Shown piece by piece: positions 5,646 to 56,936 of a stretch of 64,000 nucleotides of DNA. Below the pieces are notes generated by a model. That model did no database searches and was not told where the DNA came from. It worked only from the letters and a program-made list of their open reading frames with translations. Made by a program: the position numbers and the translations under genes. The DNA is from Candidatus Gottesmanbacteria bacterium GW2011_GWC1_43_10 (lineage in GTDB: Bacteria > Patescibacteriota > Microgenomatia > UBA10105), in the NCBI GenBank assembly GCA_000995415.1, contig LCEX01000001.1:60-64059 (forward strand). Reading direction: 5' to 3'. The number at the start of each line of letters is the position of its first letter. Within the stretch, counting starts at the first letter, position 1.

Positions 5646-5652
5646 ATAGTTT

Positions 5653-6480: not shown

Positions 6481-6503
6481 CTACACTAATTTATCCTCAA
6501 GAT

Positions 6504-6532
6504 TTGCCGCTTTTGATTAATTGTCCTATAAT
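6504..6532 (+). promoter_or_regulatory. sigma70-like promoter (TTGCCG -17 nt- TATAAT) for a leaderless transcript of the 6541 ORF
   Basis: TTGCCG at 6504-6509 and TATAAT at 6527-6532 with 17-nt spacing. The ATG at 6541 is only 8 nt downstream. Confidence 0.35.
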
Positions 6533-6540
6533 ACGGTCTG

Positions 6541-13331: not shown

Positions 13332-14222
13332 ATGAAGAACTTTGTTAAGTCTAAACAGTTTTTAGCAATTTTTTTATTTTCCGCCATAAGTCGACTGCTT
13401 TTTTTGGGAGTAATTCCTCCGGGAGTAAATTCAGCTTTTTGGCTAAGACTGCCGAGTGCAATCGGGGGAATGATTTCTATCATTACCCTGATGTTGGTTT
13501 TATATAAACTTACCGCCAAACCAGTGTTGGCGGAAGTTGCCGGACTGATGCTTGGGTTTATGCCTTGGCACATAGAACAAAGCCGAGTGATATCTCAAGC
13601 TATGTTGGGGATGACTATTTTATTGATCGGAGTATTAGGAGCAGTCACATCTAAATCAAAAATGACGAGATGGACGATCGTTATTCTATGCGGGGTGGGT
13701 TTTTATCTCACGTATCCTTCTATCTGGATGAGGTCCTTGCCAATGATACTTCCGAATTTAGAAAAAGTACTTTCTAACTTATCTAAATTAATTTCGGTTG
13801 AATTTCTTTTTTACAATAATGATTCATTCTGGTGGGGTGGTTTACGGACTATGGGGGCAATGTTACCAACAGTCCTGCCCTTTTATGTTGTCGGGCTATT
13901 AGCGGTCATCCGAAATATACAAGCCAAATACTGGTTTTATTATACCGGTTTTGGAGTGATTTGGTTGATTGCTGCCACAAACCCCCGTTTTCCCGAAGGC
14001 AGGGAGTTTTTTTTAATATCGCCTTATTTAGCTTTTGTTTTAGCTTTAGGAGTAATAAAAGTATTCGAACACATAAAGTCGTCAAAGATGATCTCAAGGG
14101 TTTTTATTTTAATATATTTGATATTCGCAGTTTACGAACAGATTTGGTTTTTGCATATGTATACCACTCATTATGCCCAAAGAGTCAAAAATGAAATACC
14201 GAATTCGCAATTTAGTTTCTAA
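13332..14222 (+). CDS. half-size GT39/ArnT-like paralog lacking the N-terminal DE catalytic loop and the C-terminal domain (possible pseudo-paralog)
   Basis: RLPSAIGGMISIITLMLVLYKL...FMPWHIEQSRV aligns with RLPSAILGTLTVGLVYFLV...ISAWHIAESR of the downstream paralogs. The roughly 55-aa segment carrying YSDE..GYNAYS..KTGRDEYG is absent. 296 aa versus 534-602 aa. Confidence 0.45.
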   Translation: MKNFVKSKQFLAIFLFSAISRLLFLGVIPPGVNSAFWLRLPSAIGGMISIITLMLVLYKLTAKPVLAEVAGLMLGFMPWHIEQSRVISQAMLGMTILLIGVLGAVTSKSKMTRWTIVILCGVGFYLTYPSIWMRSLPMILPNLEKVLSNLSKLISVEFLFYNNDSFWWGGLRTMGAMLPTVLPFYVVGLLAVIRNIQAKYWFYYTGFGVIWLIAATNPRFPEGREFFLISPYLAFVLALGVIKVFEHIKSSKMISRVFILIYLIFAVYEQIWFLHMYTTHYAQRVKNEIPNSQFSF

Positions 14223-15891
14223 CCCGATTCCAGGCTTACTAATTTTAGTTATTCTTTTGGCCGGAGTTTTGCGCGTGTCATTTTTAGACCGGTTTCCGCC
14301 AGCACTTTATTCAGATGAGGTTTCCCAGGGATACAATGCGTACTCCATTTGGAAAACGGGTAGAGATGAATACGGCAAGTTTTTACCGGTATCTTTGCGT
14401 TCTTTTGGGGATTGGAAACCACCGTTGCCCACATATCTGATGATTCCGACGATTGCAATTTTTGGACTGAACGCTTGGGGTGTCAGATTGCCATCGGCAA
14501 TACTGGGAACTTTGACTGTCGGCTTAGTCTATTTTTTAGTTTCCGAGTTATTGCAATTTTTTGAGATGAAAACAACTAGAGATGCTCAAAAAACTGATTT
14601 CAACCGAGGTGTTGCTTTATGGTCTGCTCTGTTCTTAGCAATTTCGGCTTGGCATATTGCAGAAAGTCGTAGTGCTATGTTGGTCGCAGTAGGACTATTT
14701 TGGATATGTATGGCAATATGGAGTTTTCTCAAAGGCCTCAAACAACCAAATTATTGGTATATATCGAGCTTGAGTTTAGTTTTTGGAATTTATACTTATT
14801 ATGGATTGCGATTGGTAGTACCTTTGTTACTTATAGCACTAGCCATCTTTTTCATAAAACCTATTTTACGAAATTGGCAAAAAGCGATCGTTGCAGCTAT
14901 TTTAGGCACAGTTTTATTATTACCTTTAATTGTGGCTTATATCAAAGAACCGGATGTATTGTGGGGTAGAGCCAGAACTGTAAGTATTTTTTATGATCAA
15001 GGAGTGGCTTTAAACGTAAAGGATTTGATAGCTCAAGATGGCATCGGGATGCCGCCAAAACTGGCACAATTTTTTCATAACAAAACTTATGCATATACAG
15101 TCGATATCATACGCCGTTTCTTCCAACATCTGGATGGCAGGTATTTATTTTTGATCGGTGACCAAAGTCCGCCTTTTCAAATCCCAGGAATGGGAATTCT
15201 GTATTTAGGAGATGTCATTCTATTGATCTTTGGTCTAAACTACTTAAGTAAAAACTCACGCTTACTCAAATTTTTGTTGGTTTGGGCAGCAATAACAATT
15301 GTCCCATCGGCATTGACTTTTGTGACACCGGCGTCTAACCGAACTTTCAATTTGGTTGTACCCCTGGTCGTAATTATGGCTTTTGGCGCTGTAAACTTGT
15401 TTGGTCGATTAAACAAATATTTCTTCTGGAGCAGTTTGTTTATAATTTACGGATCGAGTTTCGCCTATTTTAGTTTTAATTATTTTAAAGCACTACCCAA
15501 ACAACATGCTGATTGGTGGCACTACGGTTACCAGGAACTTTATGCCTATCTGGCGACTCAGGAATCACAAGTTGAAACTATTTATATCTCCGGCCATGCG
15601 AGCGTGCCTTATATATTCTTGTTATTTTTTCAAGAAATAGATCCGGCATTAGTTGCGACGCAAATAAAAAGAAATTATAAAGCTGACATATATGGATTTG
15701 AACACGTGGACGAGTTTGGTAAATATCAGTTTCCGCGGTATTTTAAATGGGAAGTAGATAAAGATAATTTAGCAAGTAATTCTTTATTAGTTTTGACTGA
15801 AAGTGAGGTGGCAGGGGAAGGGGCACGGGATATCAAAGACATCATTTACCCGGACGGACGAATTGCCTTCAAAATCTATAAGATTGAATAG
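14191..15891 (+). CDS. ArnT/PMT-like GT-C glycosyltransferase, tandem paralog 1 (ORF opens at 14173; ATG at 14191 preferred)
   Basis: YSDEVSQGYNAYSIWKTGRDEYGKFLPVSLRSFGDWKPP...RLPSAILGTLTVGLVYFLV...ISAWHIAESRS. C-terminal module ...PYIFLLFFQEIDPAL. Multi-TM N-terminal half followed by a soluble C-terminal domain. Confidence 0.8.
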   Translation: MKYRIRNLVSNPIPGLLILVILLAGVLRVSFLDRFPPALYSDEVSQGYNAYSIWKTGRDEYGKFLPVSLRSFGDWKPPLPTYLMIPTIAIFGLNAWGVRLPSAILGTLTVGLVYFLVSELLQFFEMKTTRDAQKTDFNRGVALWSALFLAISAWHIAESRSAMLVAVGLFWICMAIWSFLKGLKQPNYWYISSLSLVFGIYTYYGLRLVVPLLLIALAIFFIKPILRNWQKAIVAAILGTVLLLPLIVAYIKEPDVLWGRARTVSIFYDQGVALNVKDLIAQDGIGMPPKLAQFFHNKTYAYTVDIIRRFFQHLDGRYLFLIGDQSPPFQIPGMGILYLGDVILLIFGLNYLSKNSRLLKFLLVWAAITIVPSALTFVTPASNRTFNLVVPLVVIMAFGAVNLFGRLNKYFFWSSLFIIYGSSFAYFSFNYFKALPKQHADWWHYGYQELYAYLATQESQVETIYISGHASVPYIFLLFFQEIDPALVATQIKRNYKADIYGFEHVDEFGKYQFPRYFKWEVDKDNLASNSLLVLTESEVAGEGARDIKDIIYPDGRIAFKIYKIE

Positions 15892-15912
15892 ATATGTTAG
15901 GCTATTAACTAC

Positions 15913-17721
15913 ATGAATAAGTTGAGTAAGTATTTTTTATTGCTTAATATCGTAGGTTTGGCTTTGGTTTTGCGTCTGGTCAACGTAAGTCAGGTGCCAC
16001 CCGGTTTGAATCGAGATGAGGCAGCTATTGGGTATAACGCTTATTCACTTCTTAAAACCGGCAGAGACGAATACGGCAAGTCTTGGCCCTTATCTTTTAA
16101 ATCTTTTGGTGACTGGAAAGTGCCGGCATATTTTTACATGGTGATGCCCTTCGTCCAGTTGTTGGGCTTAACCGAGTTGGCTGTGCGTTTGCCTTCAGGT
16201 CTGCTCGGTACTGCCACGGTATTTTTAACATATTGTTTAGTTTGCGAAATATTGGCTTTTCGGTCAATAAATCAAAGATCTGATACAACCTCCGTCTTGA
16301 CTCTAGCAAAATCACAAATAGACATGATTGCCTTACTTGCAGCTTTTATCTTAGCTATCACTCCTTGGCATGTGTTCATGTCCCGCAACGCTTCCGAGTC
16401 TAACGTCGCAGTATTTTTTGCAGTTTTGGGCTTGTGGACTTTTTTTCGCAGTTTCCAAAATAAAAAACTACTGCTAGTTTCATTTATTGCATTTGCGCTG
16501 ACTTTATATACCTATCATGGAAATCATATTTTTACGCCATTATTTATTTTGGGGTTGTGTACAATATACTGGCGTGAATGTTTAGCCAACCCGTGGTTTA
16601 AAACTGCTGGCGGTATATTTATCCTGCTCTCGGCTATAATCTTTAGCCAAACACTCCTAGGCGCCGATAAAACAAAAATCTCTGGTTTATTCCCGTTGAG
16701 TGATCAATCAAAAGTTTATGCAGATATCACTCTGCGCCGTCTCGAATACAAAAACAACCAGCTTCTTGCCAAATTGATCCACAACAAACCTCTATATTTG
16801 ATCGAAACAGTTGTCAACAATTACCTTAAAGGTTTTTCTAGCGAATTTTTGTTTATCAAAGGAGGAGACAATGCACAGCACAATATTCCCGGATTTGGAA
16901 ATTTATTAGTTTGGGAAGCTCCGTTTATCTTCTTGGGGATCTGCATTTTATTAAATGCAAAACAAAAAAACGGCTATTTTTTGGTATATTGGTTACTGAT
17001 ATCACCGCTAGCTGCAAGTATTACTCGAGATGCGCCTCATACCGCCCGGATGATGGGTTTTTTACCGTTGCCAGCAATTTTGGCAGCTTACGGGTTAGGT
17101 ATAAGCGGGATGTGGATATGGCGGCGAAAGGTTGGGTGGATATTTAGCATCGGGATGGGAGTCATTATCGGAATTTATTTAATTTTATATCTAGATCAGT
17201 ATTTTGTGCATTTTCCGCTGGTTTCAGCAAAAGATTGGGGGTATGGGTACAAGCAACTTGTTGATGAAACACTCAAGCTTCAAAGTAAATACAAACAAGT
17301 TTTTATTGCCCGACCCGAAGTTTCCCCCTACATATATTTTTTGTTTTACGGTCAACTTGATCCCGAAACATATCAAAAAACTATAGTTCGCTATCCGGAA
17401 ACTACAGAAGGTTTTGCGCATGTACGCCAGATGGATAAACTCTACTTTCAACAAATCGACTGGGCTGATGAACTATTGATCCCTAACCGACTATATATCG
17501 ACTGGGTAGAAGGAGTTCCTAGTGGAGCTACTGCTAGTGCCGTAATAATTGATAAACCTACTTTGGCAAAACTGATTCAGAATGGACAGGACGTCAGCGA
17601 GCTAACCGTTGGAGACAAGGTCGTAAGTCGTATCGTGGATACAATCAAACTGCCTGACCACAAGCCATATATCTACTTGATTGAGACTCGGACGGCGAGT
17701 CCTTCTGCATTACCTTTATGA
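15913..17721 (+). CDS. ArnT/PMT-like GT-C glycosyltransferase, tandem paralog 2
   Basis: NRDEAAIGYNAYSLLKTGRDEYGKSWPLSFKSFGDWKVP...RLPSGLLGTATVFLTY...ITPWHVFMSR...PYIYFLFYGQLDPETY. Confidence 0.8.
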   Translation: MNKLSKYFLLLNIVGLALVLRLVNVSQVPPGLNRDEAAIGYNAYSLLKTGRDEYGKSWPLSFKSFGDWKVPAYFYMVMPFVQLLGLTELAVRLPSGLLGTATVFLTYCLVCEILAFRSINQRSDTTSVLTLAKSQIDMIALLAAFILAITPWHVFMSRNASESNVAVFFAVLGLWTFFRSFQNKKLLLVSFIAFALTLYTYHGNHIFTPLFILGLCTIYWRECLANPWFKTAGGIFILLSAIIFSQTLLGADKTKISGLFPLSDQSKVYADITLRRLEYKNNQLLAKLIHNKPLYLIETVVNNYLKGFSSEFLFIKGGDNAQHNIPGFGNLLVWEAPFIFLGICILLNAKQKNGYFLVYWLLISPLAASITRDAPHTARMMGFLPLPAILAAYGLGISGMWIWRRKVGWIFSIGMGVIIGIYLILYLDQYFVHFPLVSAKDWGYGYKQLVDETLKLQSKYKQVFIARPEVSPYIYFLFYGQLDPETYQKTIVRYPETTEGFAHVRQMDKLYFQQIDWADELLIPNRLYIDWVEGVPSGATASAVIIDKPTLAKLIQNGQDVSELTVGDKVVSRIVDTIKLPDHKPYIYLIETRTASPSALPL

Positions 17722-19343
17722 AGCCACGAATACTGATGCTGTTATTGCTGATCCTGATTTTTGGGAGTGGTTTACGGTTGTGGCAATTGGGTAAAATCCC
17801 TGAAGGTTTTTATTCTGATGAAGCACTTTATGGATACGAAGCCTATTCTCTTTCAAAAACCGGTAGAGATCAGTTCGGATACGAGTGGCCAATATCTGTT
17901 GCCGGGTTTGGCGATTATCGTCCCGCAGCATATATTTGGGCGACAGTGCCTTTCATCAAATACTTCGGACTAACCGAGTTTGCCACCCGTTTACCTTCGG
18001 CACTAGCTAGTATCATGACCTTAATTCTGGTTTTTTATTTTGTGTGGGAGGTGACCAAAAAACCAAAGATAGCCTTGTTTGCTACTTTGTTATTGGCAAT
18101 TTCACCTTTAAGTCTATATTTTGGGAGGATGGCGCATGAGACAAACCTGATGACACTATTTATAGTCGCCGGATGTGTGTGTCTTTGGAAGTGTAGACAG
18201 AAAAATGGTTATGCAGTACCGGCAATGCTATTTTTTGCAGCGGCTGTTTATACTTACCATAGCGCTCGCGTATTTGTGCCGTTGTTTTTGCTTCTGACCT
18301 ACTGGTTATTCAGAAAAACTATTTTTCAAGATAAGCGCATGGTGGTTTTGAGTTTACTCACCCTGTTTGTATTTTCTTTGCCACTAGTTAACGAGCTAAG
18401 AAACCCAGAGTCATGGTCGCGGATTCAAGGCGTGAGCTTGTGGACGGATCCGGGGCTGATCCCGCGGATAAATGAATGGCGCGGGCGAGTGAGTGGCTTT
18501 GGGGTGCCAGTAATCCTCAGTCGGATGTTAGTCAATAAAGTTACGATTTTTAGTCTAAGTTTCGTAAATAATTATCTATCGCATTTCTCACCAGATTTTT
18601 TGTTAAGTAAAGGTGATCCTAATGGCGTATACAATACACCAAAAAGCGGCATTTTATATTGGGTGGATCCACTTTTAATGTTGATTGGCGCTTTAGTTTT
18701 ATATAAACGCGAGCGGCGAACTTTTTGGTGGGTCGGCGGATCCATCTTGCTGGGTTTAATTCCCGATGCGTTGACTCGAGTAGCGCCGGCATCCCCGCGG
18801 ATTCATTTGGTACTGCCGTTCGTGGTTTTACTGTCGGGAATGGGGATGGCAACTTTAGGCAGTCTTAAACCCAAGGCGATTTATTATTTTGTTAGCATCT
18901 TATTAGTAATAAATACCTGGTGGTTTTGGTACCAATATTTGCTTGTTCGTCCCCTAGAGAGATCTGATGCCTGGCAGACGGGGACAAAAGAGATGGTCTT
19001 GACCGCGCAAAAACTGGCTCCGAGATTTGATCAAATTTGGATATCTAGGTCAGGGTGGGGTTGGATCCACCTAGTTTTTCATACTCGTTTGGATCCAGCG
19101 CTTTGGCAAAAGCAAATACGGATAGCGGAAAGAAACGATATGGGTTTTTGGTGGGTAAGAGATGTGGGAAAATATCACCTTGAATGGTTGCCAAAACCAC
19201 TAAACACATCTTTGCACACTTTGTATATTGCCACACCCAGCGAATTTGCCAGCGGAATAGTTCCAATGGCCAAAATCCAAGACCCGCTCCGCCATACAGA
19301 TATTTATTGGTTGGTAGACAGCGAGAATCTAGCAGTAGATTGA
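17718..19343 (+). CDS. ArnT/PMT-like GT-C glycosyltransferase, tandem paralog 3
   Basis: YSDEALYGYEAYSLSKTGRDQFGYEWPISVAGFGDYRPA...RLPSALASIMTLILVFYFV. 4-nt ATGA overlap with paralog 2. Confidence 0.8.
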   Translation: MKPRILMLLLLILIFGSGLRLWQLGKIPEGFYSDEALYGYEAYSLSKTGRDQFGYEWPISVAGFGDYRPAAYIWATVPFIKYFGLTEFATRLPSALASIMTLILVFYFVWEVTKKPKIALFATLLLAISPLSLYFGRMAHETNLMTLFIVAGCVCLWKCRQKNGYAVPAMLFFAAAVYTYHSARVFVPLFLLLTYWLFRKTIFQDKRMVVLSLLTLFVFSLPLVNELRNPESWSRIQGVSLWTDPGLIPRINEWRGRVSGFGVPVILSRMLVNKVTIFSLSFVNNYLSHFSPDFLLSKGDPNGVYNTPKSGILYWVDPLLMLIGALVLYKRERRTFWWVGGSILLGLIPDALTRVAPASPRIHLVLPFVVLLSGMGMATLGSLKPKAIYYFVSILLVINTWWFWYQYLLVRPLERSDAWQTGTKEMVLTAQKLAPRFDQIWISRSGWGWIHLVFHTRLDPALWQKQIRIAERNDMGFWWVRDVGKYHLEWLPKPLNTSLHTLYIATPSEFASGIVPMAKIQDPLRHTDIYWLVDSENLAVD

Positions 19344-19368
19344 TTCTGGTATATGATAGAATTAGACA

Positions 19369-21054
19369 ATGAAACTGGTAAATCTGATTTTGGTATTTGT
19401 TTTGTTGTTGGCTGCAGGACTGCGCCTTTATAAACTCGATACTCACCCAGTTTCTGCATACGGTGACGAAATTTCATTTGCCTGGAATGCGTGGAGTGTT
19501 CTAAAAACCGGAGCAGATGAATACGGAATTAGACTGCCGCTGCAGTTTAAGGCCTTCGATGACTACAAAGCGCCAATCCCCGTGTACCTACTTGTTCCCA
19601 TGTTTGCCGCGTTTGGAATGAACATGTGGAGTTTACGTGTACCAGTGGCAATCGCGGGGACTTTAACAGTTTGGGTAACTTATTTACTCGTTAGGGAACT
19701 TTTAAAAGTAAATAAGTTGCCTCTTAACTATAATCCAAAACTAAAATCAGTTAAAATTGAACAAAATTTGTTTTGGTTACCGATAATAAGCGCCTTATTA
19801 CTAGCCATTTCTCCTTGGCATATCCACTTATCCCGCGGATATTTTGAGGCCACACTAGCTTTATTGTCCTTCATATTGGGAATTTATTTTTATTTGAAGG
19901 GTCTAACCCAGAGTCAGTTTTTTTATGCTAGTGCCGTAAGTTTTGCACTTTCGCTTTATACCTACTTCACGCCCCGGTTACTACTACTGATTTTTCTACC
20001 GTTCCTGTATGTCTATTTCCGAAAACACATGGATAAAGATTCCTATAAACAATTTATCTTAGCGGCAGTTTTATTTGGGGTGATATCTTTACCTTTAGTA
20101 AAATTGGCCATTTTTGACAATGGTGGCAACCGATTGACCTGGTTTTTGAAACAAAGATTGTTGACAGCCTCAGATCAGGCCACTAGAGAACTCGCTACCG
20201 CCGGTGGCCCTCTTATTATCAAGCGCTTATTGCATAATCGATATTCCATCGTAGCTTCGAAGATAGGTAACGATTATTTAGAGCATTTTTCCTTCAATTT
20301 TTGGTATATCTATGGAGACAATAGTCTGCGTTACTTTTTGGGGAATATGGGCATGTTCTATCTGGCCGAAATGCCGTTTTTACTTATCGGTCTATATATG
20401 TTACTTCGGTATCAGCCAAGACTAGCTGGTTTTATTATCGGTTGGTTGTTGCTCGCGCCGATTCCTACTGCGCTTGTTGGCAGGTCATTTGCGGTCAGAA
20501 GCATAGCGATGCTACCGGCGCCATTTATGATCGTGGGTTATGGCATACTCTCGTTAATAGATTATGTCAAAAGTAAATACCCAAGACAGCTTAAATTAAG
20601 TTTGTTGGTTATAGTCGGATTGTTTATATTTAGCCTAGCAAACTATGTATTGCGTTATCATTTGGACTACATTCGTTACGCCGCTACCTGGTGGGGATGG
20701 GAAAACAAAGCCGCCATCGATTATGCGAGAGCTCGTGAAGCCGACTATGACCAAATTTTCCTGTCTGATTTTTATAGCGGAATGCCGCTCGCCTTGGCTT
20801 TTTATACCCAAGCTGACCCGTGGGTTTACCGGCAAGCTCTGGATCACCGTTTAACCGTAGCTGATGGGAAACACGTGATGAGATTGGGTAAATACTATAT
20901 CGGTTCGTTGGATTTGGATGAAGCCAGACTTAAAGCCAAATTTATACCACCGAAGACTTTGTATATAGCTCGACCGGAAGAAGCAGATAGTCCGGAAACG
21001 ATCAATGCCCCTGATGACGGCAGATTGATATTCAAAGTTTATCATACAGAATAA
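19369..21054 (+). CDS. ArnT/PMT-like GT-C glycosyltransferase, tandem paralog 4 (most diverged)
   Basis: YGDEISFAWNAWSVLKTGADEYGIRLPLQFKAFDDYKAP...RVPVAIAGTLTVWVTYLLV...ISPWHIHLSRG. Confidence 0.8.
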   Translation: MKLVNLILVFVLLLAAGLRLYKLDTHPVSAYGDEISFAWNAWSVLKTGADEYGIRLPLQFKAFDDYKAPIPVYLLVPMFAAFGMNMWSLRVPVAIAGTLTVWVTYLLVRELLKVNKLPLNYNPKLKSVKIEQNLFWLPIISALLLAISPWHIHLSRGYFEATLALLSFILGIYFYLKGLTQSQFFYASAVSFALSLYTYFTPRLLLLIFLPFLYVYFRKHMDKDSYKQFILAAVLFGVISLPLVKLAIFDNGGNRLTWFLKQRLLTASDQATRELATAGGPLIIKRLLHNRYSIVASKIGNDYLEHFSFNFWYIYGDNSLRYFLGNMGMFYLAEMPFLLIGLYMLLRYQPRLAGFIIGWLLLAPIPTALVGRSFAVRSIAMLPAPFMIVGYGILSLIDYVKSKYPRQLKLSLLVIVGLFIFSLANYVLRYHLDYIRYAATWWGWENKAAIDYARAREADYDQIFLSDFYSGMPLALAFYTQADPWVYRQALDHRLTVADGKHVMRLGKYYIGSLDLDEARLKAKFIPPKTLYIARPEEADSPETINAPDDGRLIFKVYHTE

Positions 21055-21055
21055 T

Positions 21056-23011
21056 GTGCATATGTGGGAATTTGTGTACTACAGCCTAATTTTCGGATTG
21101 TTTGTTTGTGGATTTTTTTTGCTTCCGGGTTTGACACTTTTAAATTGGGCGAATATAAAACAGATTGCAAACAGAACAAAAATCAGTTGCGGTTTGATCC
21201 TGGGTGTAATCGGGTTTTTGTGGCTGGTTTTAATACTAAGAAGTTTGGGTTTGTCATTTAGACTGATGTGGATTTATGCTGGCGTTGGCGTTTGGTTTAG
21301 CTGGAAGCGTTTGATTCAAAGAAAACTTCAATTGACACACTTCAAGTTAAATATTAAAAAATTTTTTTATTTGCTGGTTTTAACAACTTTAGTTTTGATC
21401 CTCTCCATTTTGCATTTGACCGGCGGAGTGGGATCAGACGGGATGCATCTGGCGGCAGCTCGGGACGGCCTTTGGCGGGTAGCTGTGGTGGGTGAATTAA
21501 TTCATCACTTTCCGCCACAAATTCCGGGTTTCCCTCCGCAACTACTCAAAAATTATCACTTCTTTTATGATTTGTTGGTGGCAAGCACACAATTTTTGAC
21601 TTCAATTCCTACTCTAACTTTATATTTTAAGCTCTTTACTGTATTCTCCGCCGCGCTGTTTGTGCTTTTGATTTATGAAATCCTAGCACTTTTCGTAAAC
21701 AAAAGCGGGTGGGTTTTATACGGTACAGTTCTGACAGTGCTTACCGGGAATTTATCTTACCTGTTACATTTTTTTTCTGCGCAATACAGCTTTCTTTATA
21801 AAGCCAATATCTTTATGTCAGATCAACCTTTTGACCAAGTACATAACCCGTTTAATCTGTTTGCTTACTCTTTGGTGTTACTTAGTATTTACTTACTTTT
21901 TGTCTGGGAAAGAAACTCTAGTCCCAAAACGTTTTTACTTCTGGCATTGGTTATTGGGTTACTTCCCGGGATCAAAATCTATGCTGGAGTATTGGTCTTG
22001 GGCGCATATATAGGTATGGTGGCTTATAAAATTTTTTGGCAAAAATACTTTCGTTTTTATTTACTACTACCCTTTATTTTTGTCTTACCAGTATTAAATA
22101 GCATTCGGGGCAGTGGGTTTTCGATTTTGGTATTTAACCCGGGTTGGTTACTAACTAAAATGATCGAAGATCGGGATCGAATTTATTGGCCCGAGATGGC
22201 ACTAAAATTGCAGTACTATACCCAAACTGGCAACATATTTCGTATATTACAGATCAGAATTACCCAATTATTAGTATATTTTTTAGGTAATTTAAACGTC
22301 CGAGTATTGGGATTGATAGTACTTTTTAGACGGGCTTGGTATAAAGACCAGACCGGAACGAAGGTATTTATTTTACTCATAGCTGTTTTTGCGTTTGGAT
22401 TGCCGCTGTTTTTTAGTCAAAATCGGGCTAGTTATGACAGTATTCAATTTACTCCATACGGTTTGCTGCTAATCAGTTTGTTGTTGGCTGTGGTTTTTAC
22501 AAGTTGGGTCTTGAGGTTAAAGCAAAATCTGCGAACTGCAGTTGGGTGGTTGGGAGGTGGGTTATTGCTAGCTTTAGCCATCCCGACAAATATTTTTGTT
22601 TTAAATCAAAATTTGTTGGCTACACATTACCAGGTAAATAAGGACGAAGTAGCTGCTTTAGCCTATCTATCAAAAAATATGCGTCCGGATGAAATAGTTT
22701 TAACAGACCTGGATCAGGATAAACAAATGTATATGTATGTCGCGGCCCTGCTTGAACGGCGGGTGTTTTTGGCCGGGATAGCATTAAACGAACAGTTGGG
22801 CATAAACTCTGACCCAAGACGCAAGGAAATAAACCAATTCTTTGCAAACCACGATGAAAACCTCGATCAGAAACGGAATTTTTTGCACAGTAATACCATT
22901 GCCTACATTTATATATCTGCCTCAGGGTTGACATATCGGGACTTACTAAATGATCTGGGGTTACAAACGGTTTACCAAAATCAGAAGGTCTATATCTATA
23001 AAGTTCCATGA
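21056..23011 (+). CDS. polytopic integral membrane protein of unknown family interrupting the paralog array
   Basis: More than 14 predicted TM segments and no DE/GYNAYS motif. Starts 2 nt after paralog 4 and overlaps paralog 5 by 4 nt, so it is co-transcribed. Confidence 0.6.
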   Translation: MHMWEFVYYSLIFGLFVCGFFLLPGLTLLNWANIKQIANRTKISCGLILGVIGFLWLVLILRSLGLSFRLMWIYAGVGVWFSWKRLIQRKLQLTHFKLNIKKFFYLLVLTTLVLILSILHLTGGVGSDGMHLAAARDGLWRVAVVGELIHHFPPQIPGFPPQLLKNYHFFYDLLVASTQFLTSIPTLTLYFKLFTVFSAALFVLLIYEILALFVNKSGWVLYGTVLTVLTGNLSYLLHFFSAQYSFLYKANIFMSDQPFDQVHNPFNLFAYSLVLLSIYLLFVWERNSSPKTFLLLALVIGLLPGIKIYAGVLVLGAYIGMVAYKIFWQKYFRFYLLLPFIFVLPVLNSIRGSGFSILVFNPGWLLTKMIEDRDRIYWPEMALKLQYYTQTGNIFRILQIRITQLLVYFLGNLNVRVLGLIVLFRRAWYKDQTGTKVFILLIAVFAFGLPLFFSQNRASYDSIQFTPYGLLLISLLLAVVFTSWVLRLKQNLRTAVGWLGGGLLLALAIPTNIFVLNQNLLATHYQVNKDEVAALAYLSKNMRPDEIVLTDLDQDKQMYMYVAALLERRVFLAGIALNEQLGINSDPRRKEINQFFANHDENLDQKRNFLHSNTIAYIYISASGLTYRDLLNDLGLQTVYQNQKVYIYKVP

Positions 23012-24612
23012 GTAAATATAAAGTTATTCTAGTGTTGGTGATAGTCGTCGGGGCGTTTTTGCGGTTGTATCGTCTGGGCCAAAATCCGCCGGCCCTCTAT
23101 TGGGATGAAGCATCACTTGGGTATAACGCCTTTGCGATCCTTAAAACCGGGCACGACGAACACGGCGAAAAACTGCCGGTAGCGCGATTTATCGCCTTTG
23201 GTGACTATAAACCTCCGGGTTACATTTATGCTACGGTGCCATTCTTAGCCGTGTTTGGCGTAAATGAATTTGCCATCAGATTGCCTTCTGCCGTAGCTGG
23301 CATCTTGATGATCGGATTAACTTATATCTTAGCTTACGCCTTGACGCATGATGAACGGATAGGCCTGGCGGCAGCGGCTGTACTTGCCATTTCACCCTGG
23401 GGACTTCAGTTGTCTCGGGTTGCGTTTGAAGCGCATTTAGCCGCCCTGTTTAACTTAGTAGCAATTGTGATATTTTTAAAATCTCTTAAAGTACGTTGGT
23501 ATTTACCACTTGCCGTGTTTTTCTTCGGGCTTTCTTTTTATACGTTTAATGCAAATCGGATTATAGCTCCATTATTGTTAGGATTGATGTTAGTCGTTTA
23601 CATCAAAGAATTATGGCAAAGCAAGCTTTGGTTACTGGTTTCGGCCGTCGTCGGTTTGATCATGATCTGGCCAAGTGTTGGATATCTTGAGACTCGGGAA
23701 AGCCGGCTGAGATTTCAGGAAGTGTCAATTTTTACAAGTTTGGACGTAGTAAAAAAATCCAACGACCGAATAGCTCGGAGTGGAAATACGTGGTGGGCTA
23801 AACTGCTGTTTAATCGCAGAATATATTTTGCCGAAGAATTTTTGATTCATTATCTGGACAATTTCAGGGGTGACTTTTTGTTTGTCGTGGGTGACCGGAA
23901 TCCCAGACTAGCGACCCAAGATTTGGGTGAGCTCTATCCCTACGAGTTACCGCTGCTGCTTGCCGGAATTTATTTTTTGTTAAAACGGCCCAGTCGAGAA
24001 ACAGCATTGTTTTGGGGATGGATGTTGATTGCGCCTATTCCTGCCGGCATGGCTCGTGAAACACCGCACATGCTGCGGATTGCTTCCATTATCCCCACGT
24101 GGCAGATTTTAGTGGGAATCGGAGTGGTACAAGGAATTCTTTGGCTCAAAGAGCAGAAAGCGTATCTAAAATGGGCAGTGGGAGTAGGATATTCGATTTT
24201 GATTTTAGGTTGTTTAAGTTACTACTTTCACAACTATTGGATTCACTATCCGCGGGATTGGAGTAGCGAGTGGCAGTACGGATACAAACAATTGGTAGAA
24301 AAAGTAAATAGGCTAGAGCCAAATTACGATCGCATATACATCACCAACGATTTGGGCCGGCCATATATCTACTTTCTACTTTATAATCAAATAGACCCGC
24401 TGGTTTACATTGCAGAAAGAAAGGCCGAGCGGGATTGGTATGGATTTTGGACTGTTTTTGGATTTGGTAAATATGATTTTAGTGGGAGTCAAAAAGAAAC
24501 AGGACGAGTTTTGGTAGTGGGTGGAAAAGACACCTTTGTCCATTCTGGTAAGAAATTGGATACAGTTATGGCGCCTGACGGAAGTGCAATTTTTGATATA
24601 GGAGAACCATAA
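23008..24612 (+). CDS. ArnT/PMT-like GT-C glycosyltransferase, tandem paralog 5
   Basis: YWDEASLGYNAFAILKTGHDEHGEKLPVARFIAFGDYKPP...RLPSAVAGILMIGLTYILA...ISPWGLQLSR...PYIYFLLYNQIDPLVY. Confidence 0.8.
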   Translation: MSKYKVILVLVIVVGAFLRLYRLGQNPPALYWDEASLGYNAFAILKTGHDEHGEKLPVARFIAFGDYKPPGYIYATVPFLAVFGVNEFAIRLPSAVAGILMIGLTYILAYALTHDERIGLAAAAVLAISPWGLQLSRVAFEAHLAALFNLVAIVIFLKSLKVRWYLPLAVFFFGLSFYTFNANRIIAPLLLGLMLVVYIKELWQSKLWLLVSAVVGLIMIWPSVGYLETRESRLRFQEVSIFTSLDVVKKSNDRIARSGNTWWAKLLFNRRIYFAEEFLIHYLDNFRGDFLFVVGDRNPRLATQDLGELYPYELPLLLAGIYFLLKRPSRETALFWGWMLIAPIPAGMARETPHMLRIASIIPTWQILVGIGVVQGILWLKEQKAYLKWAVGVGYSILILGCLSYYFHNYWIHYPRDWSSEWQYGYKQLVEKVNRLEPNYDRIYITNDLGRPYIYFLLYNQIDPLVYIAERKAERDWYGFWTVFGFGKYDFSGSQKETGRVLVVGGKDTFVHSGKKLDTVMAPDGSAIFDIGEP

Positions 24613-24621
24613 AAATACAAA

Positions 24622-26259
24622 ATGCAAAAATCAAAAATCAAAATGACGATTCAAAATTCAAAAATTTATTTAGTTTTAATTTTATTTTTGGCAGCCTTTT
24701 TAAGGTTTTATCAACTGGGAATTAATCCTCCATCTTTGGATTGGGATGAGGTATCGCTCGGTTACAATGCGTATTCTCTTTTGAAAACTGGGAAAGATGA
24801 ATTTGGGCGGGCGTGGCCCATATCTATCCGATCTTTTGAGGACTACAAGCCGGCAGTTTATACATACTTGACTATCCCGGCAGTAGCTATTTTTGGGTTA
24901 AACGAATTTGCAGTGCGCTTACCCGGTGCAATTTTGGGTACGCTCACAGTTTTGGTGACATATTTTTTGGTGCGGGAACTGTTCAATCAAAAGATGGGTT
25001 TTGTGGTCACTTTATTGTTGGCCATTTCTCCCTGGCATTTGCAGTTTTCGCGAGTGGCTTTTGAAGCAAGCGCCGCGCTGTTTTTCGTCGTAACCGGCTG
25101 CTGGCTATTTCTCAAAGGTACTAACCGCGGAAAATGGTTGATCTTATCTGTTGTATTCTTGGTCTTATCATTTTATACATATCATAGTCCGCGACTCGTA
25201 GTGCCACTAATTTTATTGGGTTGGGGGGTATACTTTAGACACAAACTGTGGCAGGAGCGCAGGTATGTCGGATTGGCTTGTGGTCTAGGTTTATTCCTTC
25301 TACTACCATTTTTTCAGGAAGCATACGCGGTAGGACGGGCCAGATTTACTTCGGTGACGGTGATGAATTCGGCCGGCAGACTTGATAGCGCGATTAGCCG
25401 AACTGAATATGACCTGTCACAAGGCGATACTCTGGGTGCCTTATTGCACAACCGGCGAATTGTTTACGCTTTGGCTATCCTAAAAGGTTATTTAGATCAT
25501 TTTAATCTGGATTTTTTGTTTTTCACCGGAGACAGCGCAAATAGGCACCATGCACAAGATATGGGAATGTTATATTTTTGGGAAGCGCCTTTTGTGATTT
25601 GGGGAATGTGGCAACTACTCAAGAAACGGCAGGCATTTCCAGTCTGGTGGTGGTACCTGATGGCGCCTTCCGCCGCAGCTATCACTACTGGCACGCCACA
25701 TGCAGTCAGGGCACTAATATACTTGCCCACTTACCAAATATTTACAGCTCTGGGCCTAATTATGTCTTACCAATTCTTCAAAGATAAATTGTGGTCTAGG
25801 AAAAAATTACTTAATTTCGCCAAAGCCGCGCTGTTAGTCATAGTTTTCATAAATGTTTTCTATTATTTGCAAATGTATTATATTCATACCCCAGTTGAAG
25901 TATCTCGAGACTGGCAATATGGCAGTAAGCAGGCAGTTACCGAAATAGCAGCCTGGGATAGTCAAGTCGAAAAAATCATCATGACGTATAGTTATGACCA
26001 ACCGCATACATTTGCGTTGTTCTATATGGCTATTGATCCCAGCTGGTATCAACAACAAGTAGCGGGGAAAGAAGTCAAGCGAGATGTACGCAGTTTTGGT
26101 AAATACGAATTCCGAAATATAGATTGGGAAAAAGATGAAAAATTGCATAACGTTCTCCTCATCGGAACGGGAAATGAGATTCCGGCCGCTGCCATCGGGC
26201 TAGTCAAAGAGATCAAATTTTTGGATGGTACAATTGCCTTTAGAATCGTAAAAAGATAA
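24622..26259 (+). CDS. ArnT/PMT-like GT-C glycosyltransferase, tandem paralog 6
   Basis: DWDEVSLGYNAYSLLKTGKDEFGRAWPISIRSFEDYKPA...RLPGAILGTLTVLVTYFLV...ISPWHLQFSR. Confidence 0.8.
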   Translation: MQKSKIKMTIQNSKIYLVLILFLAAFLRFYQLGINPPSLDWDEVSLGYNAYSLLKTGKDEFGRAWPISIRSFEDYKPAVYTYLTIPAVAIFGLNEFAVRLPGAILGTLTVLVTYFLVRELFNQKMGFVVTLLLAISPWHLQFSRVAFEASAALFFVVTGCWLFLKGTNRGKWLILSVVFLVLSFYTYHSPRLVVPLILLGWGVYFRHKLWQERRYVGLACGLGLFLLLPFFQEAYAVGRARFTSVTVMNSAGRLDSAISRTEYDLSQGDTLGALLHNRRIVYALAILKGYLDHFNLDFLFFTGDSANRHHAQDMGMLYFWEAPFVIWGMWQLLKKRQAFPVWWWYLMAPSAAAITTGTPHAVRALIYLPTYQIFTALGLIMSYQFFKDKLWSRKKLLNFAKAALLVIVFINVFYYLQMYYIHTPVEVSRDWQYGSKQAVTEIAAWDSQVEKIIMTYSYDQPHTFALFYMAIDPSWYQQQVAGKEVKRDVRSFGKYEFRNIDWEKDEKLHNVLLIGTGNEIPAAAIGLVKEIKFLDGTIAFRIVKR

Positions 26260-26298: not shown

Positions 26299-27222
26299 AT
26301 GAAAATTTTGGTAACTGGCGGAGCGGGATTTATTGGTTCACATATTGTTGATGCCTACATTAATTTAGGCCATGAAGTGATCGTCATTGACAATCTGTCA
26401 ACCGGACAGAAACGATTTCTTAATCCCAAAGCTATATTTTATCAGGTAGACATTCGGGAACGGGCGCAAGTAGAGGAAATCTTTGCCACACATCAACCCG
26501 GAGTTTTAAATCACCATGCGGCGCAAATGGATGTGCGTAAATCTGTAGCTGACCCCATCTTTGATGCTGAAGTAAACATTTTAGGATTGATTCATCTCAT
26601 GGAAATAGGTCGGACTACCGGTTTAAAACAGGTCATTTTTGCTTCATCCGGAGGCACGGTTTACGGAGAAGCCAAACAAATACCGACTCCCGAATCGGCG
26701 CCAACCTTGCCTATATCCCCATATGGGATATCCAAATTAGCGAGTGAAAATTATCTACATTTTTACCGGGCAATTTATGGCATCAAGTTTGCGGCTTTAA
26801 GGTATGGCAACGTCTACGGGCCCAGGCAAAATCCTCATGGTGAAGCCGGGGTGGTCGCGATATTTTGTAAAAAGCTCCTAAAGCAGGAACAGCCGGTAAT
26901 AAATGGAGATGGGGAACAAACACGCGATTTTGTTTACGTCAAAGATGTGGTTGAGGCCAATGTGCTTGCCTTAAATCTAAAGCAACCATTGATCGTCAAT
27001 ATTGGAACTGGCACCGCCACCTCGGTGAATACAGTTTTTGATATCTTAGGTAGGTTGATGCAAAGCACTTTGCCCAAAAAATATGGTCCGGTTAAGCCCG
27101 GTGAACAAAGAACTAGTGTTTTAGAGACAAGTCTAGCTAAGGAAACTTTAAGCTGGAGCCCCAAATTTACGCTTGAACGAGGTTTAAGTGAAACCATCGC
27201 ATTTTTCGAAAATGAAAGTTGA
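26299..27222 (+). CDS. NAD-dependent sugar-nucleotide epimerase/dehydratase (GalE-like UDP-hexose 4-epimerase family)
   Basis: MKILVTGGAGFIGSH Rossmann start. SDR YxxxK region PYGISKLASENY. About 307 aa, typical of GalE. Confidence 0.85.
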   Translation: MKILVTGGAGFIGSHIVDAYINLGHEVIVIDNLSTGQKRFLNPKAIFYQVDIRERAQVEEIFATHQPGVLNHHAAQMDVRKSVADPIFDAEVNILGLIHLMEIGRTTGLKQVIFASSGGTVYGEAKQIPTPESAPTLPISPYGISKLASENYLHFYRAIYGIKFAALRYGNVYGPRQNPHGEAGVVAIFCKKLLKQEQPVINGDGEQTRDFVYVKDVVEANVLALNLKQPLIVNIGTGTATSVNTVFDILGRLMQSTLPKKYGPVKPGEQRTSVLETSLAKETLSWSPKFTLERGLSETIAFFENES

Positions 27223-28705: not shown

Positions 28706-29447
28706 GCGTAATAAGATCATCGTCGTTATGCCAGCATTCAATGCCGAAAAGACTTTGGAAAAAACGGTTAAGGATTTTCCACCGGGTCTAGTCAGCAAAA
28801 CAATTTTGGTTGATGATGGGTCGACAGATCAAACAGTCAAACTAGCGCAAAAACTGGGTTTAACGGTGTTTACCCATTCAGCAAATTTAGGTTACGGCGG
28901 TAACCAGAAGACTTGTTATTGGGAGGCACTAAAAGAAAACCCGGATGTAGTGGTGATGGTGCATCCTGATTATCAATACGATAGTTCGTTGACGGGCGAA
29001 ATGGTCCGACCGATTTTGGAAGGTAGATACGATATGATGTTTGGTAACCGGATTCGGACTCGAGCTGAAGTACTAGCCGGAGGGATGCCAAGAGCCAAGT
29101 ACTACCTGAATCGAGTATATTGCATTTTGGAAAACATGGTATTAGGTGCCAACTTTCCTGAGTATTTTAGTGGCATGCGAGCATATAGCGGTAAATTATT
29201 AAAAAAAATTCCCTTTCAGCGTTTCTCAAATGACTTTGTTTTCGATCAGCAGTTCATGTTGGTGGCTTATGCTCATGCGTTTCGGATCGGCACTATAGAT
29301 ATCCCGGTCCGCTATTTTTCCGAAGCCTCTTCAATTCAGTTTGTAAAAGGAAGTAAGTTCCTGATTGAGACGCTAGTTATGTTACTTAGGTATTTAGGTT
29401 TTAAATGGCGTTTGACACAAGATGATTTGTTTAGAATCGCGTCATGA
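28698..29447 (+). CDS. GT2 polyprenyl-phosphate sugar synthase (GtrB/DPM1-like)
   Basis: IIVVMPAFNAEKTL...ILVDDGSTDQT...ANLGYGGNQKT...FSGMRAY matches the DPM1/GtrB pattern (NRGKG-like loop). Soluble, 249 aa. 4-nt overlap with the following GT-C membrane gene. Confidence 0.75.
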   Translation: MNKRNKIIVVMPAFNAEKTLEKTVKDFPPGLVSKTILVDDGSTDQTVKLAQKLGLTVFTHSANLGYGGNQKTCYWEALKENPDVVVMVHPDYQYDSSLTGEMVRPILEGRYDMMFGNRIRTRAEVLAGGMPRAKYYLNRVYCILENMVLGANFPEYFSGMRAYSGKLLKKIPFQRFSNDFVFDQQFMLVAYAHAFRIGTIDIPVRYFSEASSIQFVKGSKFLIETLVMLLRYLGFKWRLTQDDLFRIAS

Positions 29448-36575: not shown

Positions 36576-36583
36576 AATTTTTT

Positions 36584-53821: not shown

Positions 53822-53879
53822 TAAGTTAAGTTAATCGTTTGATTACACAGGCACCATGTATTCTTGAGTCAATGCGATT

Positions 53880-53888: not shown

Positions 53889-53915
53889 TGTAGCACAATT
53901 TTGAAAGGGAAATAA

Positions 53916-56226: not shown

Positions 56227-56227
56227 C

Positions 56228-56935: not shown

Positions 56936-56936
56936 G

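Follow-up and report, generated by a model that had tools for sequence, protein, structure and literature searches.

Several systems of transmembrane glycosylation by GT-C enzymes are known. One is ArnT, the lipid A 4-amino-4-deoxy-L-arabinose transferase (CAZy GT83; PDB 5ezm and 5f15), which is among the closest known systems to the genes considered here. The protein O-mannosyltransferases (PMTs; CAZy GT39), such as Pmt1-Pmt2 and Pmt4, are another. In these enzymes, a D-[DE] motif after the first transmembrane helix (TM1) is essential for catalysis (D55/E56 in ArnT, D77/E78 in Pmt1), and the two residues of Pmt1 are salt-bridged to R138 (PMC7801869). In monoderm bacteria, multi-component systems (GacI/GacJ/GacK/GacL; CsbB/GtcA/YfhO; GtlA/GtlB; CsdAB, CsdCD and CsdEF; PpgS/Rv3632/Rv3779) combine a GT-A polyprenyl-phosphate-sugar synthase and a flippase with a PMT_2 or YfhO-type GT-C that acts outside; the Gac and PpgS systems also have a DUF2304 helper (PMC8035078; 10.1101/180810). 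For the PMT_2 GT-Cs GtlB, GttB, GtcC, CsdD, CsdF, GtsC and GacL, the target of modification is LTA, WTA or a wall polysaccharide (PMC8035078).

The window analysed here is a 64-kb stretch of DNA from a Microgenomates (Gottesmanbacteria-like) CPR genome, and it contains an array of such genes. The kind of enzyme is already known, but its fixed multi-copy arrangement is undescribed, and a literature search found no paper on these CPR proteins.

The array and its enzyme family

The array belongs to a single-strand run of glycan-assembly genes of about 36 kb (12404-48137), and the ORF map places its members on the + strand, closely packed or overlapping. Six of them encode full-length GT-C glycosyltransferases of the PMT_2 type. 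Paralog A (14173..15891) has 572 aa, a PMT_2 match of 7e-8 and a D-E loop; position 14191, at which the gene was first thought to begin, is an in-frame ATG six codons inside this ORF and is an alternative start. Paralog B (15913..17721; 602 aa; PMT_2 6e-6) has a longer C-terminal domain, and its stop overlaps by 4 nt with the start of paralog C (17718..19343; 541 aa; PMT_2 3e-10, PMT 2e-6). Paralog D (19369..21054; 561 aa) is the most divergent, with BLASTP E values of 5e-40 to 2e-68 against the other five, and its PMT_2 score of 22.7 bits makes it the only one of the six below the gathering score (26.1). Paralogs E (23008..24612; 534 aa; PMT_2 1e-10, PMT 6e-10) and F (24622..26259; 545 aa; the modelled member) complete the set.

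The mutual homology claimed for the six was borne out over their full length: BLASTP gave 26-37% identity over about 475-590 aa with E values of 5e-40 to 2e-99, and the mean identity in the alignment was 31%. Judged from sequence, this similarity is far beyond chance. The proposed membership of the ArnT-PMT type also holds, as Pfam PMT_2 is matched by all six and the nearest solved structure is ArnT. ArnT was the top match by structure and by profile; the family profile finds 5ezm, with the K-P-P of the family aligned with that of ArnT. Two distant relatives were likewise confirmed. One is an ArnT-like protein of 482 aa at 7042..8490 on the - strand (PMT_2 4e-16), which lacks the C-terminal domain and carries 'DFDEAW' after TM1. 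The other, at 39101..40675 (+), has 524 aa (PMT_2 2e-15, PMT 5e-7) and had been given a start at 39176.

The six genes are not consecutive, as had been stated. The run is broken by an ORF that was passed over, 21056..23011 (+), which encodes a GT-C-fold membrane protein of 651 aa. This adds a GT-C enzyme from another, unannotated family. Its C-terminal globular domain resembles that of AglB-type oligosaccharyltransferases, and STT3, AglB and PglB serve as comparators; however, a WWDYG-type motif is absent from each of 25 family members, Pfam gave no STT3 match, and AftA aligns with it over more residues (462) than these comparators do. With this protein, and with the YfhO, PTPS_related and PIG-V-like membrane proteins in the window, the earlier figure of nine GT-C genes in 64 kb is an undercount.

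In the alignment, D-E follows TM1 in all six paralogs, so the catalytic loop is conserved as proposed. K-T-G, the D of 'DEYG' and F-x-D-[YW]-[KR] are also common to the six, and the first outer loop carries D-[YW]-[KR]-[PAV]-[PA] (a 'DYKPP'-type motif) in addition to D-E. The description of this loop as strictly conserved went too far, since only 11 of its 40 positions are invariant and its mean pairwise identity is 51%. Two further motifs survive in part: R and P of the 'RLPSA' segment are invariant and its remaining letters vary, while D-P of the 'PYIYFL...DP' module is found in six of six and PYI[YF] in only three. Across 64 family members, D42, E43, D74, R99 and R363 never vary (residues are numbered as in the 24622 protein), and K76 is nearly invariant (at least 90%). 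The N-terminal membrane domain is followed, on the outer side, by a C-terminal domain of alpha/beta type, about 110-170 aa long, for which no Pfam match was found.

Orthology and the short paralog

In a neighbour-joining tree (without support values), A-F form six separate orthogroup clades, in which B and C are sisters, as are E and F. Positional orthologues share 35-61% identity, whereas paralogs share 26-37%, in agreement with the first-pass annotation, which had read the genes as old duplicates kept in a single operon and not as a recent amplification. The orthogroups of A (7 loci, single copy), B (12 loci), C (8 loci) and D (9 loci) almost always contribute one copy per locus, and the order A-B-C-D-E-F is retained in three loci. 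Of 86 related loci counted, 81 have arrays of two to seven copies; in the genome collection, 59 of 80 loci have three or fewer copies. E is found in 60 of 80 Microgenomates loci and nearly always immediately precedes F; the two are neighbours in about 60 of the 80, and the stop of E often overlaps the start of F. On these comparisons of sequence and position, the array is ancient, and A-F are anciently diverged and non-redundant. E-F is taken as the ancestral pair, and A-D as an expansion within the Gottesmanbacteria-like clade.

The earlier suggestion that diversified acceptor domains accompany a conserved chemistry holds in part. At 27% identity, the C-terminal domain is not extra diverged, as the membrane domain has 24-27% in its second half, but it is among the most orthogroup-specific parts. 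The long outer loop, which spans residues 236-320 in the 24622 protein, has the highest ratio of within- to between-orthogroup identity (1.9), followed by the C-terminal domain (1.6), whereas the DE loop and TM2-7 both have 1.3.

Upstream of A lies a short paralog ('mini', 13332..14222, +), a GT-C-derived membrane protein of 296 aa that matches paralog E (BLASTP E 4e-8 to 23008) and has no Pfam match. It was first called a truncated copy. It is not 3'-truncated; it is a conserved paralog of about 290 aa with clean deletions, not a remnant. Three internal or terminal deletions account for what is missing: one takes out the DE loop entirely, another a block of two helices together with some of the long outer loop, and the third the C-terminal domain. 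Orthologues of 259-321 aa (23-39% identity) with identical deletions are found in five other loci, and in 5/5 loci with upstream sequence the gene stands directly upstream of the A orthologue. By this pattern, mini arose recently from the PMT_2 family by deletion of the catalytic loop and C-terminal domain; it is predicted to be non-catalytic, probably as a partner of A. PIG-U/GAB1, a GT-C-fold, non-catalytic subunit of GPI transamidase, offers a comparison, without specific homology.

Proposed donor supply and function

The approximately 36 kb around the array contain candidate polyprenyl-phosphate-sugar synthases of the Dpm1/AglJ/PpgS-like GT2 type, a UDP-galactopyranose mutase (UGM) homologue and many other glycosyltransferases. 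An NAD-dependent, GalE-like sugar epimerase (26299..27222, +; Epimerase PF01370 9e-62) is kept downstream of F and occupies the same place in two related loci. It is followed by a eukaryote-type UGM homologue (27188..28705, +), which matches T. cruzi UGM 4dsg over its full length (E 1e-21), with many other UGM chains ranking next; 11 related loci also have it downstream of F, and its product would supply UDP-galactofuranose. A small GT2 (28698..29447, +), with counterparts in 29 related loci, is a candidate polyprenyl-phosphate-hexose synthase for donor supply; it matches AglJ (2e-15), PpgS (2e-11, full length) and dolichyl-phosphate hexose transferase (5e-11) in NCBIfam, all below the curated cut-offs. 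A PTPS_related/YfhO-like multi-TM protein (29444..31102, +; PF10131 1e-10, YfhO 3e-6), a further GT-C-type candidate, and another small GT2 (31099..31866, +; PF00535 6e-19) are conserved with the E-F pair in 59/82 and 61/82 loci, respectively, the latter at a median identity of 51%. Further downstream, a PpgS/GacI-like GT2 (35892-36575, +; NF058614 PpgS 5e-45 over its full length, below cut-off) and a small GacJ/Rv3632-like DUF2304 membrane partner (36545-36934, +; 2e-23) form a candidate polyprenyl-phosphate-HexNAc synthase, by analogy with the role of such a pair (10.1101/180810). A Wzx-type flippase candidate is encoded at 48111-49478 (-).

The analysis yielded homology, fold, motif conservation, orthology and synteny, from which we infer the type of donor, the class of acceptor, one linkage per enzyme and the roles of partners. 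The best explanation, to which we give about an even chance, is that A-F carry out stepwise extracytoplasmic glycosylation of envelope glycopolymers from lipid-linked sugars. The small cytoplasmic GT2s (28698-29447, and the PpgS-like protein with its DUF2304 partner) would load sugars onto polyprenyl phosphate, galactofuranose being a possible sugar given the epimerase and UGM homologue directly downstream of F. The lipid-linked monosaccharides would then be flipped to the outer face, where each paralog would move one sugar, with inversion, to its own position or acceptor; a wall polysaccharide, teichoic-acid-like polymer or lipoglycan made by the same locus is the likeliest acceptor, in line with the monoderm PMT_2 GT-Cs and with the mycobacterial Emb/Aft sets. 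Two observations count against this glycopolymer model: only two or three synthase candidates are present for at least eight GT-C enzymes, and no GtrA-type flippase was found among the ORFs scanned.

A somewhat unlikely alternative is that the paralogs are PMT-like protein O-glycosyltransferases, each C-terminal domain picking different secreted or surface proteins such as pilins or S-layer proteins. PMT (PF02366) is above the gathering score in 17718, 23008 and 24622 and just missed by 14173 (21.0 vs 22.7), the D-E plus R pattern is like that of Pmt1, and orthogroup-specific conservation is strongest in the long outer loop and the C-terminal domain. There are also weak NCBIfam matches to S. 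mutans Pgf protein-glycosylation components, and the resemblance of the embedded 21056-23011 protein to STT3/AglB, C-terminal domain included, makes protein glycosylation at the locus conceivable. However, the paralogs gave no Pfam match to PMT_4TMC or MIR, domains that true PMTs carry, the closest structure is ArnT, and the neighbourhood, with its PpgS/DUF2304 pair and UGM homologue, is of a polysaccharide type. Glycopolymers are the targets of all characterised monoderm PMT_2 GT-Cs listed in PMC8035078, and pilin or S-layer genes were not found within the window. The O-mannosylation-like system first suggested for such proteins is thus less favoured.

It is unlikely, too, that the paralogs are subunits of heteromeric complexes comparable to Pmt1-Pmt2 or EmbA-EmbB, with E-F as an obligate heterodimer and mini-A as a pair of non-catalytic and catalytic subunits; distinct activities would then be fewer than genes. 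The sister relationship and adjacency of E and F and the fixed position of mini are consistent with this, and PMTs are described as obligate dimers (PMC7759382; PMC12705809). On the other hand, no full-length paralog has lost any of the catalytic residues, so each could act alone. ArnT-like glycosylation directed at membrane lipids or lipid-anchored glycolipids, and not at wall polymers or proteins, is very unlikely. The structural and profile matches point towards it, as does 7042-8490(-), the best NCBIfam ArnT match (1e-13, yet far below cut-off); the six paralogs, however, reach at most 17.7 bits against the ArnT equivalog cut-off of 567, and the conservation of six paralogs would call for as many lipid targets. 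Lipid A is generally considered absent from CPR bacteria. Finally, recent or ongoing amplification of redundant, fast-turnover copies for variable surface glycans (phage evasion, host attachment) is extremely improbable and largely refuted by the orthology analysis: copy number does range from 1 to 7 among loci, with extra F-like copies in some, but the paralogs are only 26-37% identical, their orthogroups are essentially 1:1 and retain their order in genomes with orthologues of 45-61% identity, and the ORF map shows neither repeats nor mobile elements beside the array.

Comparison with known systems

The array can be set against the described systems. ArnT and the paralogs have in common the D-E after TM1, K-P-P in the first outer loop, an extracytoplasmic C-terminal domain and, presumably, a polyprenyl-phosphate-monosaccharide donor. 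They differ in that identity is 15%, the equivalog score is far below cut-off and the C-terminal domain of the paralogs is without a Pfam match; ArnT is one gene in the arn operon, whereas six paralogs are found here in an organism in which no lipid A is expected. PMTs share the D-E/Arg pattern and are likewise families of paralogs, which form dimers, but similarity is confined to the first ~200 residues and the C-terminal domain is another one. The mycobacterial cell-wall sets (the EmbC-EmbA-EmbB tandem paralogs, AftA-D and the Mpt enzymes) resemble the array in having several GT-C paralogs, partly in tandem, with C-terminal extracytoplasmic domains, each forming one defined wall-polysaccharide linkage from polyprenyl-phosphate sugars; these proteins are much larger, carry carbohydrate-binding modules and belong to another Pfam family. 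All component types of the monoderm systems are present in the window. In those systems there is one GT-A per GT-C, scattered in the genome, whereas here six to eight GT-C genes follow one another in a fixed tandem order and do not each have a GT-A of their own.

Family membership and predicted fold of the tandem paralogs

Six full-length PMT_2-type GT-C paralogs, here called A to F, lie on the plus strand at 14173-15891 (A), 15913-17721 (B), 17718-19343 (C), 19369-21054 (D), 23008-24612 (E) and 24622-26259 (F), and the ORF map gives products of 534-602 aa. B and C overlap by 4 nt, as do E and the gene at 21056 that precedes it; the remaining gaps measure 1-39 nt. An all-against-all BLASTP comparison of A-F gave 26-37% mutual identity over about 475-590 residues, with E-values between 5e-40 and 2e-99.

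The first-pass annotation had placed these proteins among the GT-C transferases of the ArnT/PMT type, and the Pfam search bore this out. All six match PMT_2 (PF13231), five of them above its gathering threshold of 26.1 bits (27.0-51.3 bits); D reaches 22.7 bits, yet is homologous to the other five at E <= 5e-40. The PMT model PF02366 (threshold 22.7 bits) is passed by three of the six (C, E and F), with A slightly under it at 21.0 bits, and F additionally passes the STT3 model. Since no match to PMT_4TMC or MIR was found in any of the six at E <= 0.01, they fall outside GT39 as strictly defined. When searched in isolation, the C-terminal domains of the six, and that of the 651-aa 21056 protein encoded between D and E, gave no Pfam match at E <= 10. 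Against PDB sequences, phmmer searches with the 24622 and 23008 proteins returned chance-level matches only; the family profile reached ArnT only, and its K-P-P was aligned to the K-P-P of ArnT. As structural matches, Pmt4, AglB and STT3 score close to ArnT. The paralogs share with the GT-C superfamily a superposable polytopic membrane domain and an acidic D-E in the loop after TM1, and it is very probable that they are GT-C enzymes with lipid-phosphate-sugar donors.

The first outer loop, or DE loop, shows a mean pairwise identity of 51% among A-F, and 11 of its 40 positions, counted on the alignment, are invariant (D-E, A, K-T-G, D, G, P, F and D). This loop had been described at first as strictly conserved, together with an RLPSA segment and a PYIYFL...DP module. 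The motifs are indeed present, but they are not strict: in the latter two, only R/P and D-P, respectively, are invariant. The conservation of the catalytic D-E itself was confirmed, as it occurs in all six paralogs and, in the numbering of F, D42 and E43 are invariant over 64 family members. Other residues invariant in this set include D59, D74, R99, R144, N277, R363, Y419, W431 and P473, and K76 is nearly so (>= 90%). The D-E after TM1 is essential in ArnT (D55/E56) and in Pmt1 (D77/E78), and R138 of Pmt1 forms a salt bridge with E78 (PMC7801869). Following TM1 in the same way, D42/E43 probably correspond to these pairs, and R99 of the RLP segment would be placed like R138; these equivalences are drawn from spacing and the Pfam PMT match rather than from a residue-level superposition. 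F was modelled with confidence by AlphaFold (pLDDT 92.3, pTM 0.91), and about 11 membrane-length helices can be counted from the helix list of the model. Given this number and the K-rich N-terminus, a location outside the cell is predicted for the DE loop as well as for the C-terminal alpha/beta domain (about residues 430-545).

A loop-less paralog and a further GT-C family in the array

The gene at 13332-14222 encodes a short paralog of 296 aa that aligns to A-F with three clean deletions: the entire DE loop, a two-helix block with part of the long outer loop, and the C-terminal domain. The R-L-P, PWH..SR and FLF..(N/G)D segments are retained. It had been listed as a truncated copy, but its reading as a remnant did not hold, and pseudogene status was rejected, since orthologues of 259-321 aa (23-39% identity) with identical deletions are conserved in five related loci. 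In each of the five, an A orthologue lies directly downstream. As the deletions remove even numbers of helices, the membrane topology can presumably be kept. The D-E is absent from the short paralog and from all five orthologues and, because this pair is essential in ArnT and Pmt1, the protein is predicted to be non-catalytic.

The 21056 protein (21056-23011, plus strand) was passed over in the first-pass annotation. It has no match in Pfam, NCBIfam or PDB sequences, and its family and the paralog family were not connected by a profile-profile comparison (probability 4%); the relationship is visible solely at the level of the fold. This fold resembles the STT3/AglB/PglB type, and the similarity does not extend beyond it. 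A WWDYG-type motif (W[WYF]D[YFWN]G) was found in none of 25 family members, and there is no STT3 Pfam match; the protein is therefore not an orthodox N-oligosaccharyltransferase. Orthologues occupy the equivalent position in two related loci (L012 and L014) and lie near arrays in at least ten more. With A-F, the short paralog and the 21056 protein, the range 13332-26259 holds eight GT-C-derived genes.

Orthology and divergence of the paralogs

Orthologues of F with 50-63% identity come from proteins named as Microgenomates, Gottesmanbacteria or Patescibacteria, and are annotated as "glycosyltransferase family 39" or "phospholipid carrier-dependent glycosyltransferase". A scan of the genome collection yielded 80 loci, virtually all of them in the Microgenomates group; with the window and five loci from metagenomes or assemblies, the number rose to 86. 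Full-length members within 10 kb on either side of the F orthologue were counted with a family HMM, which gave one copy in 5 loci, two in 22, three in 23, four in 20, five in 5, six in 10 and seven in 1; at most three copies occur in 59 of the 80 genome-collection loci. The family as a whole comprises 6,597 clusters (50% identity) in public data at E <= 1e-30. Several records among the related loci carry doubtful names. Metagenome-assembled genomes at L006, L009, L011, L013, L023 and many more loci hold typical Microgenomates arrays under the title "uncultured Gammaproteobacteria bacterium", in one case "Pseudomonadales", which look like placeholder or wrong taxonomy. L050, labelled Candidatus Limnocylindrales (Chloroflexota), carries the same E-F pair, by mis-binning or transfer.

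Orthologues were assigned by best hit, and 263 members were placed in a neighbour-joining tree, calculated without support values; together these gave six separate orthogroups, with E and F as sisters and likewise B and C. The number of loci is 7 for A, 12 for B, 8 for C, 9 for D, 60 for E and 80 for F. No locus has more than one copy each of A to D, apart from one in which C occurs twice. Three loci (L007, L008 and L010) share the order A-B-C-D-E-F. L001 reads short paralog-A-C-D-E-F; in this locus the C and D orthologues are separated by a DUF2130 gene (5498-6688, minus strand) inserted on the opposite strand, which indicates that the array tolerates insertions without losing its order. Separate orthogroups in a kept order support the earlier reading of old duplicates held together, and for the same reason a recent amplification is unlikely and was rejected. 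E-F is an ancestral adjacent pair of Microgenomates, and A-D, the short paralog and a downstream UDP-galactopyranose mutase (UGM) gene belong to the Gottesmanbacteria-like clade nearest the window. The paralogs probably have non-redundant functions.

It had also been proposed that conserved chemistry is combined here with diversified acceptor domains. Between the window paralogs, identity is 51% in the DE loop, 38% over the first 260 alignment columns and 24-27% in all other regions, including the C-terminal domain, which is therefore not specially diverged. A weaker form of the proposal is upheld by the ratio of within- to between-orthogroup identity in the 263-member alignment. This ratio is highest in the outward parts, namely the long outer loop (F residues 236-320; 1.9) and the C-terminal domain (1.6), followed by TM8-11 (1.4), the DE loop (1.3) and TM2-7 (1.3). 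Outward parts that are constant inside orthogroups and different between them agree with the expectation for paralogs that each serve a separate acceptor or linkage, and so support this possibility.

Proposed donor supply and acceptors, and relation to known systems

The array is part of an uninterrupted plus-strand run of about 30 genes (12404-48137) with short gaps or overlaps, some 36 kb of a genome of probably about 1 Mb. When 12-29 kb was scanned for consensus promoters and terminators, the sites found did not outnumber those in shuffled sequence, so operon boundaries are placed by gene spacing only. Almost all genes of the run encode glycosyltransferases, sugar-modifying enzymes or multi-TM GT-C-like proteins, among them seven GT2 and seven GT4 genes, two NAD-dependent epimerases and one methyltransferase. 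The UGM homologue (27188-28705, plus strand) is of the long eukaryote type; T. cruzi UGM (4dsg, E 1e-21) matches it over the full length and ranks before the short UGMs of bacteria. Its position between a GalE-like epimerase directly before it and a Dpm1-like GT2 after it is a hint that the surface glycan contains galactofuranose, which might be supplied by a lipid-linked Galf donor. The small GT2 at 28698-29447 is a candidate polyprenyl-phosphate-sugar synthase, with full-length matches, all below the curated cut-offs, to the models for AglJ, PpgS and Dol-P-hexose transferase. The second candidate, a PpgS/GacI-like GT2 (35892-36575, plus strand; PpgS 5e-45, full length, below the curated cut-off), is overlapped by a DUF2304 gene of the GacJ/Rv3632 type (2e-23) within 35892-36934. 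The DUF2304 proteins GacJ and Rv3632 bind and stimulate the synthases GacI and PpgS, whose type of product is used by GT-C enzymes for decorating wall polysaccharides (10.1101/180810). The pair thus has the two-protein polyprenyl-phosphate-HexNAc synthase arrangement of Streptococcus and Mycobacterium, here in a CPR genome. The Dpm1/PpgS-like GT2s and DUF2304 in the same gene run are contextual evidence for the predicted donor type of A-F.

Further GT-C-type enzymes are likely among the multi-TM proteins encoded at 29444-31102 (PTPS_related/YfhO-like), 32903-34630 (575 aa, unannotated), 34627-35832 (PIG-V-like) and 43498-45000 (DUF6798), all on the plus strand, and the YfhO protein upstream of the run (3003-5306, plus strand), which would bring the window to about 14-15. 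The E-F pair co-occurs with a GT2 of the type encoded at 31099 in 61 of 82 related loci and with a PTPS-like membrane protein in 59 of 82. Just downstream of the run, on the minus strand, lie a Wzx-type flippase candidate (Polysacc_synt, 48111-49478) and an RmlD-like reductase; no GtrA-family match was found among the ORFs scanned (>= 100 aa). Multi-component transmembrane glycosylation systems of the monoderm type comprise a GT-A synthase of polyprenyl-phosphate monosaccharides, a flippase (GtrA or Wzx type) and a PMT_2- or YfhO-type GT-C that modifies a wall polymer outside the membrane; A-F are GT-Cs of this type, and the two small GT2s and the Wzx-like protein are candidates for the other parts.

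Beyond these, 51611-63698 holds a nonulosonic-acid gene set (pseudaminic or legionaminic acid-like). Pfam identified a NeuB-family synthase (56937-58004) and a CMP-sugar cytidylyltransferase (59995-60717), both on the minus strand, and a DegT-type aminotransferase (51611-52780) and a PseB-like dehydratase (62712-63698) were recognized by eye only. Mixed into the set are a myo-inositol-1-phosphate-synthase-like gene (52769-53821, minus strand), a PEP-utilising enzyme (53916-55220), an ATP-grasp protein (55207-56226) and a 635-aa protein without a Pfam match (60773-62680, plus strand). Between the ArnT-like gene (7042-8490, minus strand) and the array, a Beta_propel (PF09826) protein (8657-10660, plus strand) is convergent with a FecR and NAGPA (phosphodiester glycosidase) protein (10650-12227, minus strand); both are possibly surface or glycan-processing proteins. 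A PD-(D/E)XK nuclease-family gene (5653-6480, plus strand) lies amid the glycosylation genes.

Taken together, A-F would act as inverting GT-C transferases that use single sugars from polyprenyl-phosphate carriers made by the GT2s of the run, each paralog adding its sugar to an extracytoplasmic acceptor at a site of its own. Among acceptor classes, an envelope glycopolymer built by this locus is the most likely, at about an even chance. This is based on the polysaccharide-type genes including the PpgS/DUF2304 pair, on ArnT as the nearest structure, and on the precedent of PMC8035078, where all the characterised PMT_2 GT-Cs listed for monoderm bacteria act on LTA, WTA or wall polysaccharide. 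The first-pass proposal of protein O-glycosylation is possible at a lower probability; it is favored by the three paralogs that pass the PMT model, the structural scores of Pmt4, AglB and STT3, and the STT3/AglB-like enzyme embedded in the array. Compatible with either acceptor class, heteromers (an E-F dimer, and the short paralog with A) are suggested by the conserved adjacency of these genes and by the obligate dimerisation of PMTs, as described in PMC7759382 and PMC12705809. Lipid acceptors are unlikely, as the best of A-F scores 17.7 bits against the NCBIfam ArnT equivalog (NF009784, cut-off 567), to which the gene at 7042-8490 (minus strand) scores 50.5 bits; an ArnA/ArnB/ArnD-type set was not found adjoining the array, and ArnC-type matches were weak and far under the cut-off.

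The genomes of CPR bacteria measure about 1 Mb. These bacteria are attached to or dependent on other cells, and to our knowledge almost nothing is known about their surface chemistry. No description of these proteins or arrays was found in the searched literature on GT-C, GT39, ArnT or glycosyltransferases of CPR, Patescibacteria, Microgenomates or Gottesmanbacteria. This organism devotes about 13 kb to the eight GT-C genes, and glycan genes take up most of the 64 kb of the window. The same paralogs in the same order throughout the lineage, together with the 6,597 clusters, point to a conserved, complex and undescribed surface glycoconjugate. Concrete targets for expression and glycan analysis are provided by the map of orthogroups, the partner without the loop and the GT-C family that lacks annotation.

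The kind of enzyme and the three-part logic of GT-A, flippase and GT-C were already known, and automatic annotation routinely labels the homologues as GT39. Three features are new: six orthogroups in a fixed tandem set, a conserved paralog without the loop that is coupled to A and, within the array, a GT-C family lacking annotation. Because the chemistry belongs to a kind already known, the finding adds to present knowledge without overturning it. A far-reaching and rather improbable proposal is that the fixed set (short paralog, A-D, 21056 protein, E-F and the downstream galactofuranose and polyprenyl-phosphate-sugar genes) forms an extracytoplasmic assembly line. The paralogs would build one defined complex glycan stepwise, with the short paralog as a scaffold subunit; once complete, the glycan would be passed en bloc to protein or wall by the STT3/AglB-like 21056 protein. 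Such a line would be comparable to the ER ALG pathway or to mycobacterial arabinogalactan synthesis. If true, the lineage as a whole would have a new pathway for a surface glycoconjugate, one that may be central to the attachment of these ultra-small CPR cells to their hosts.
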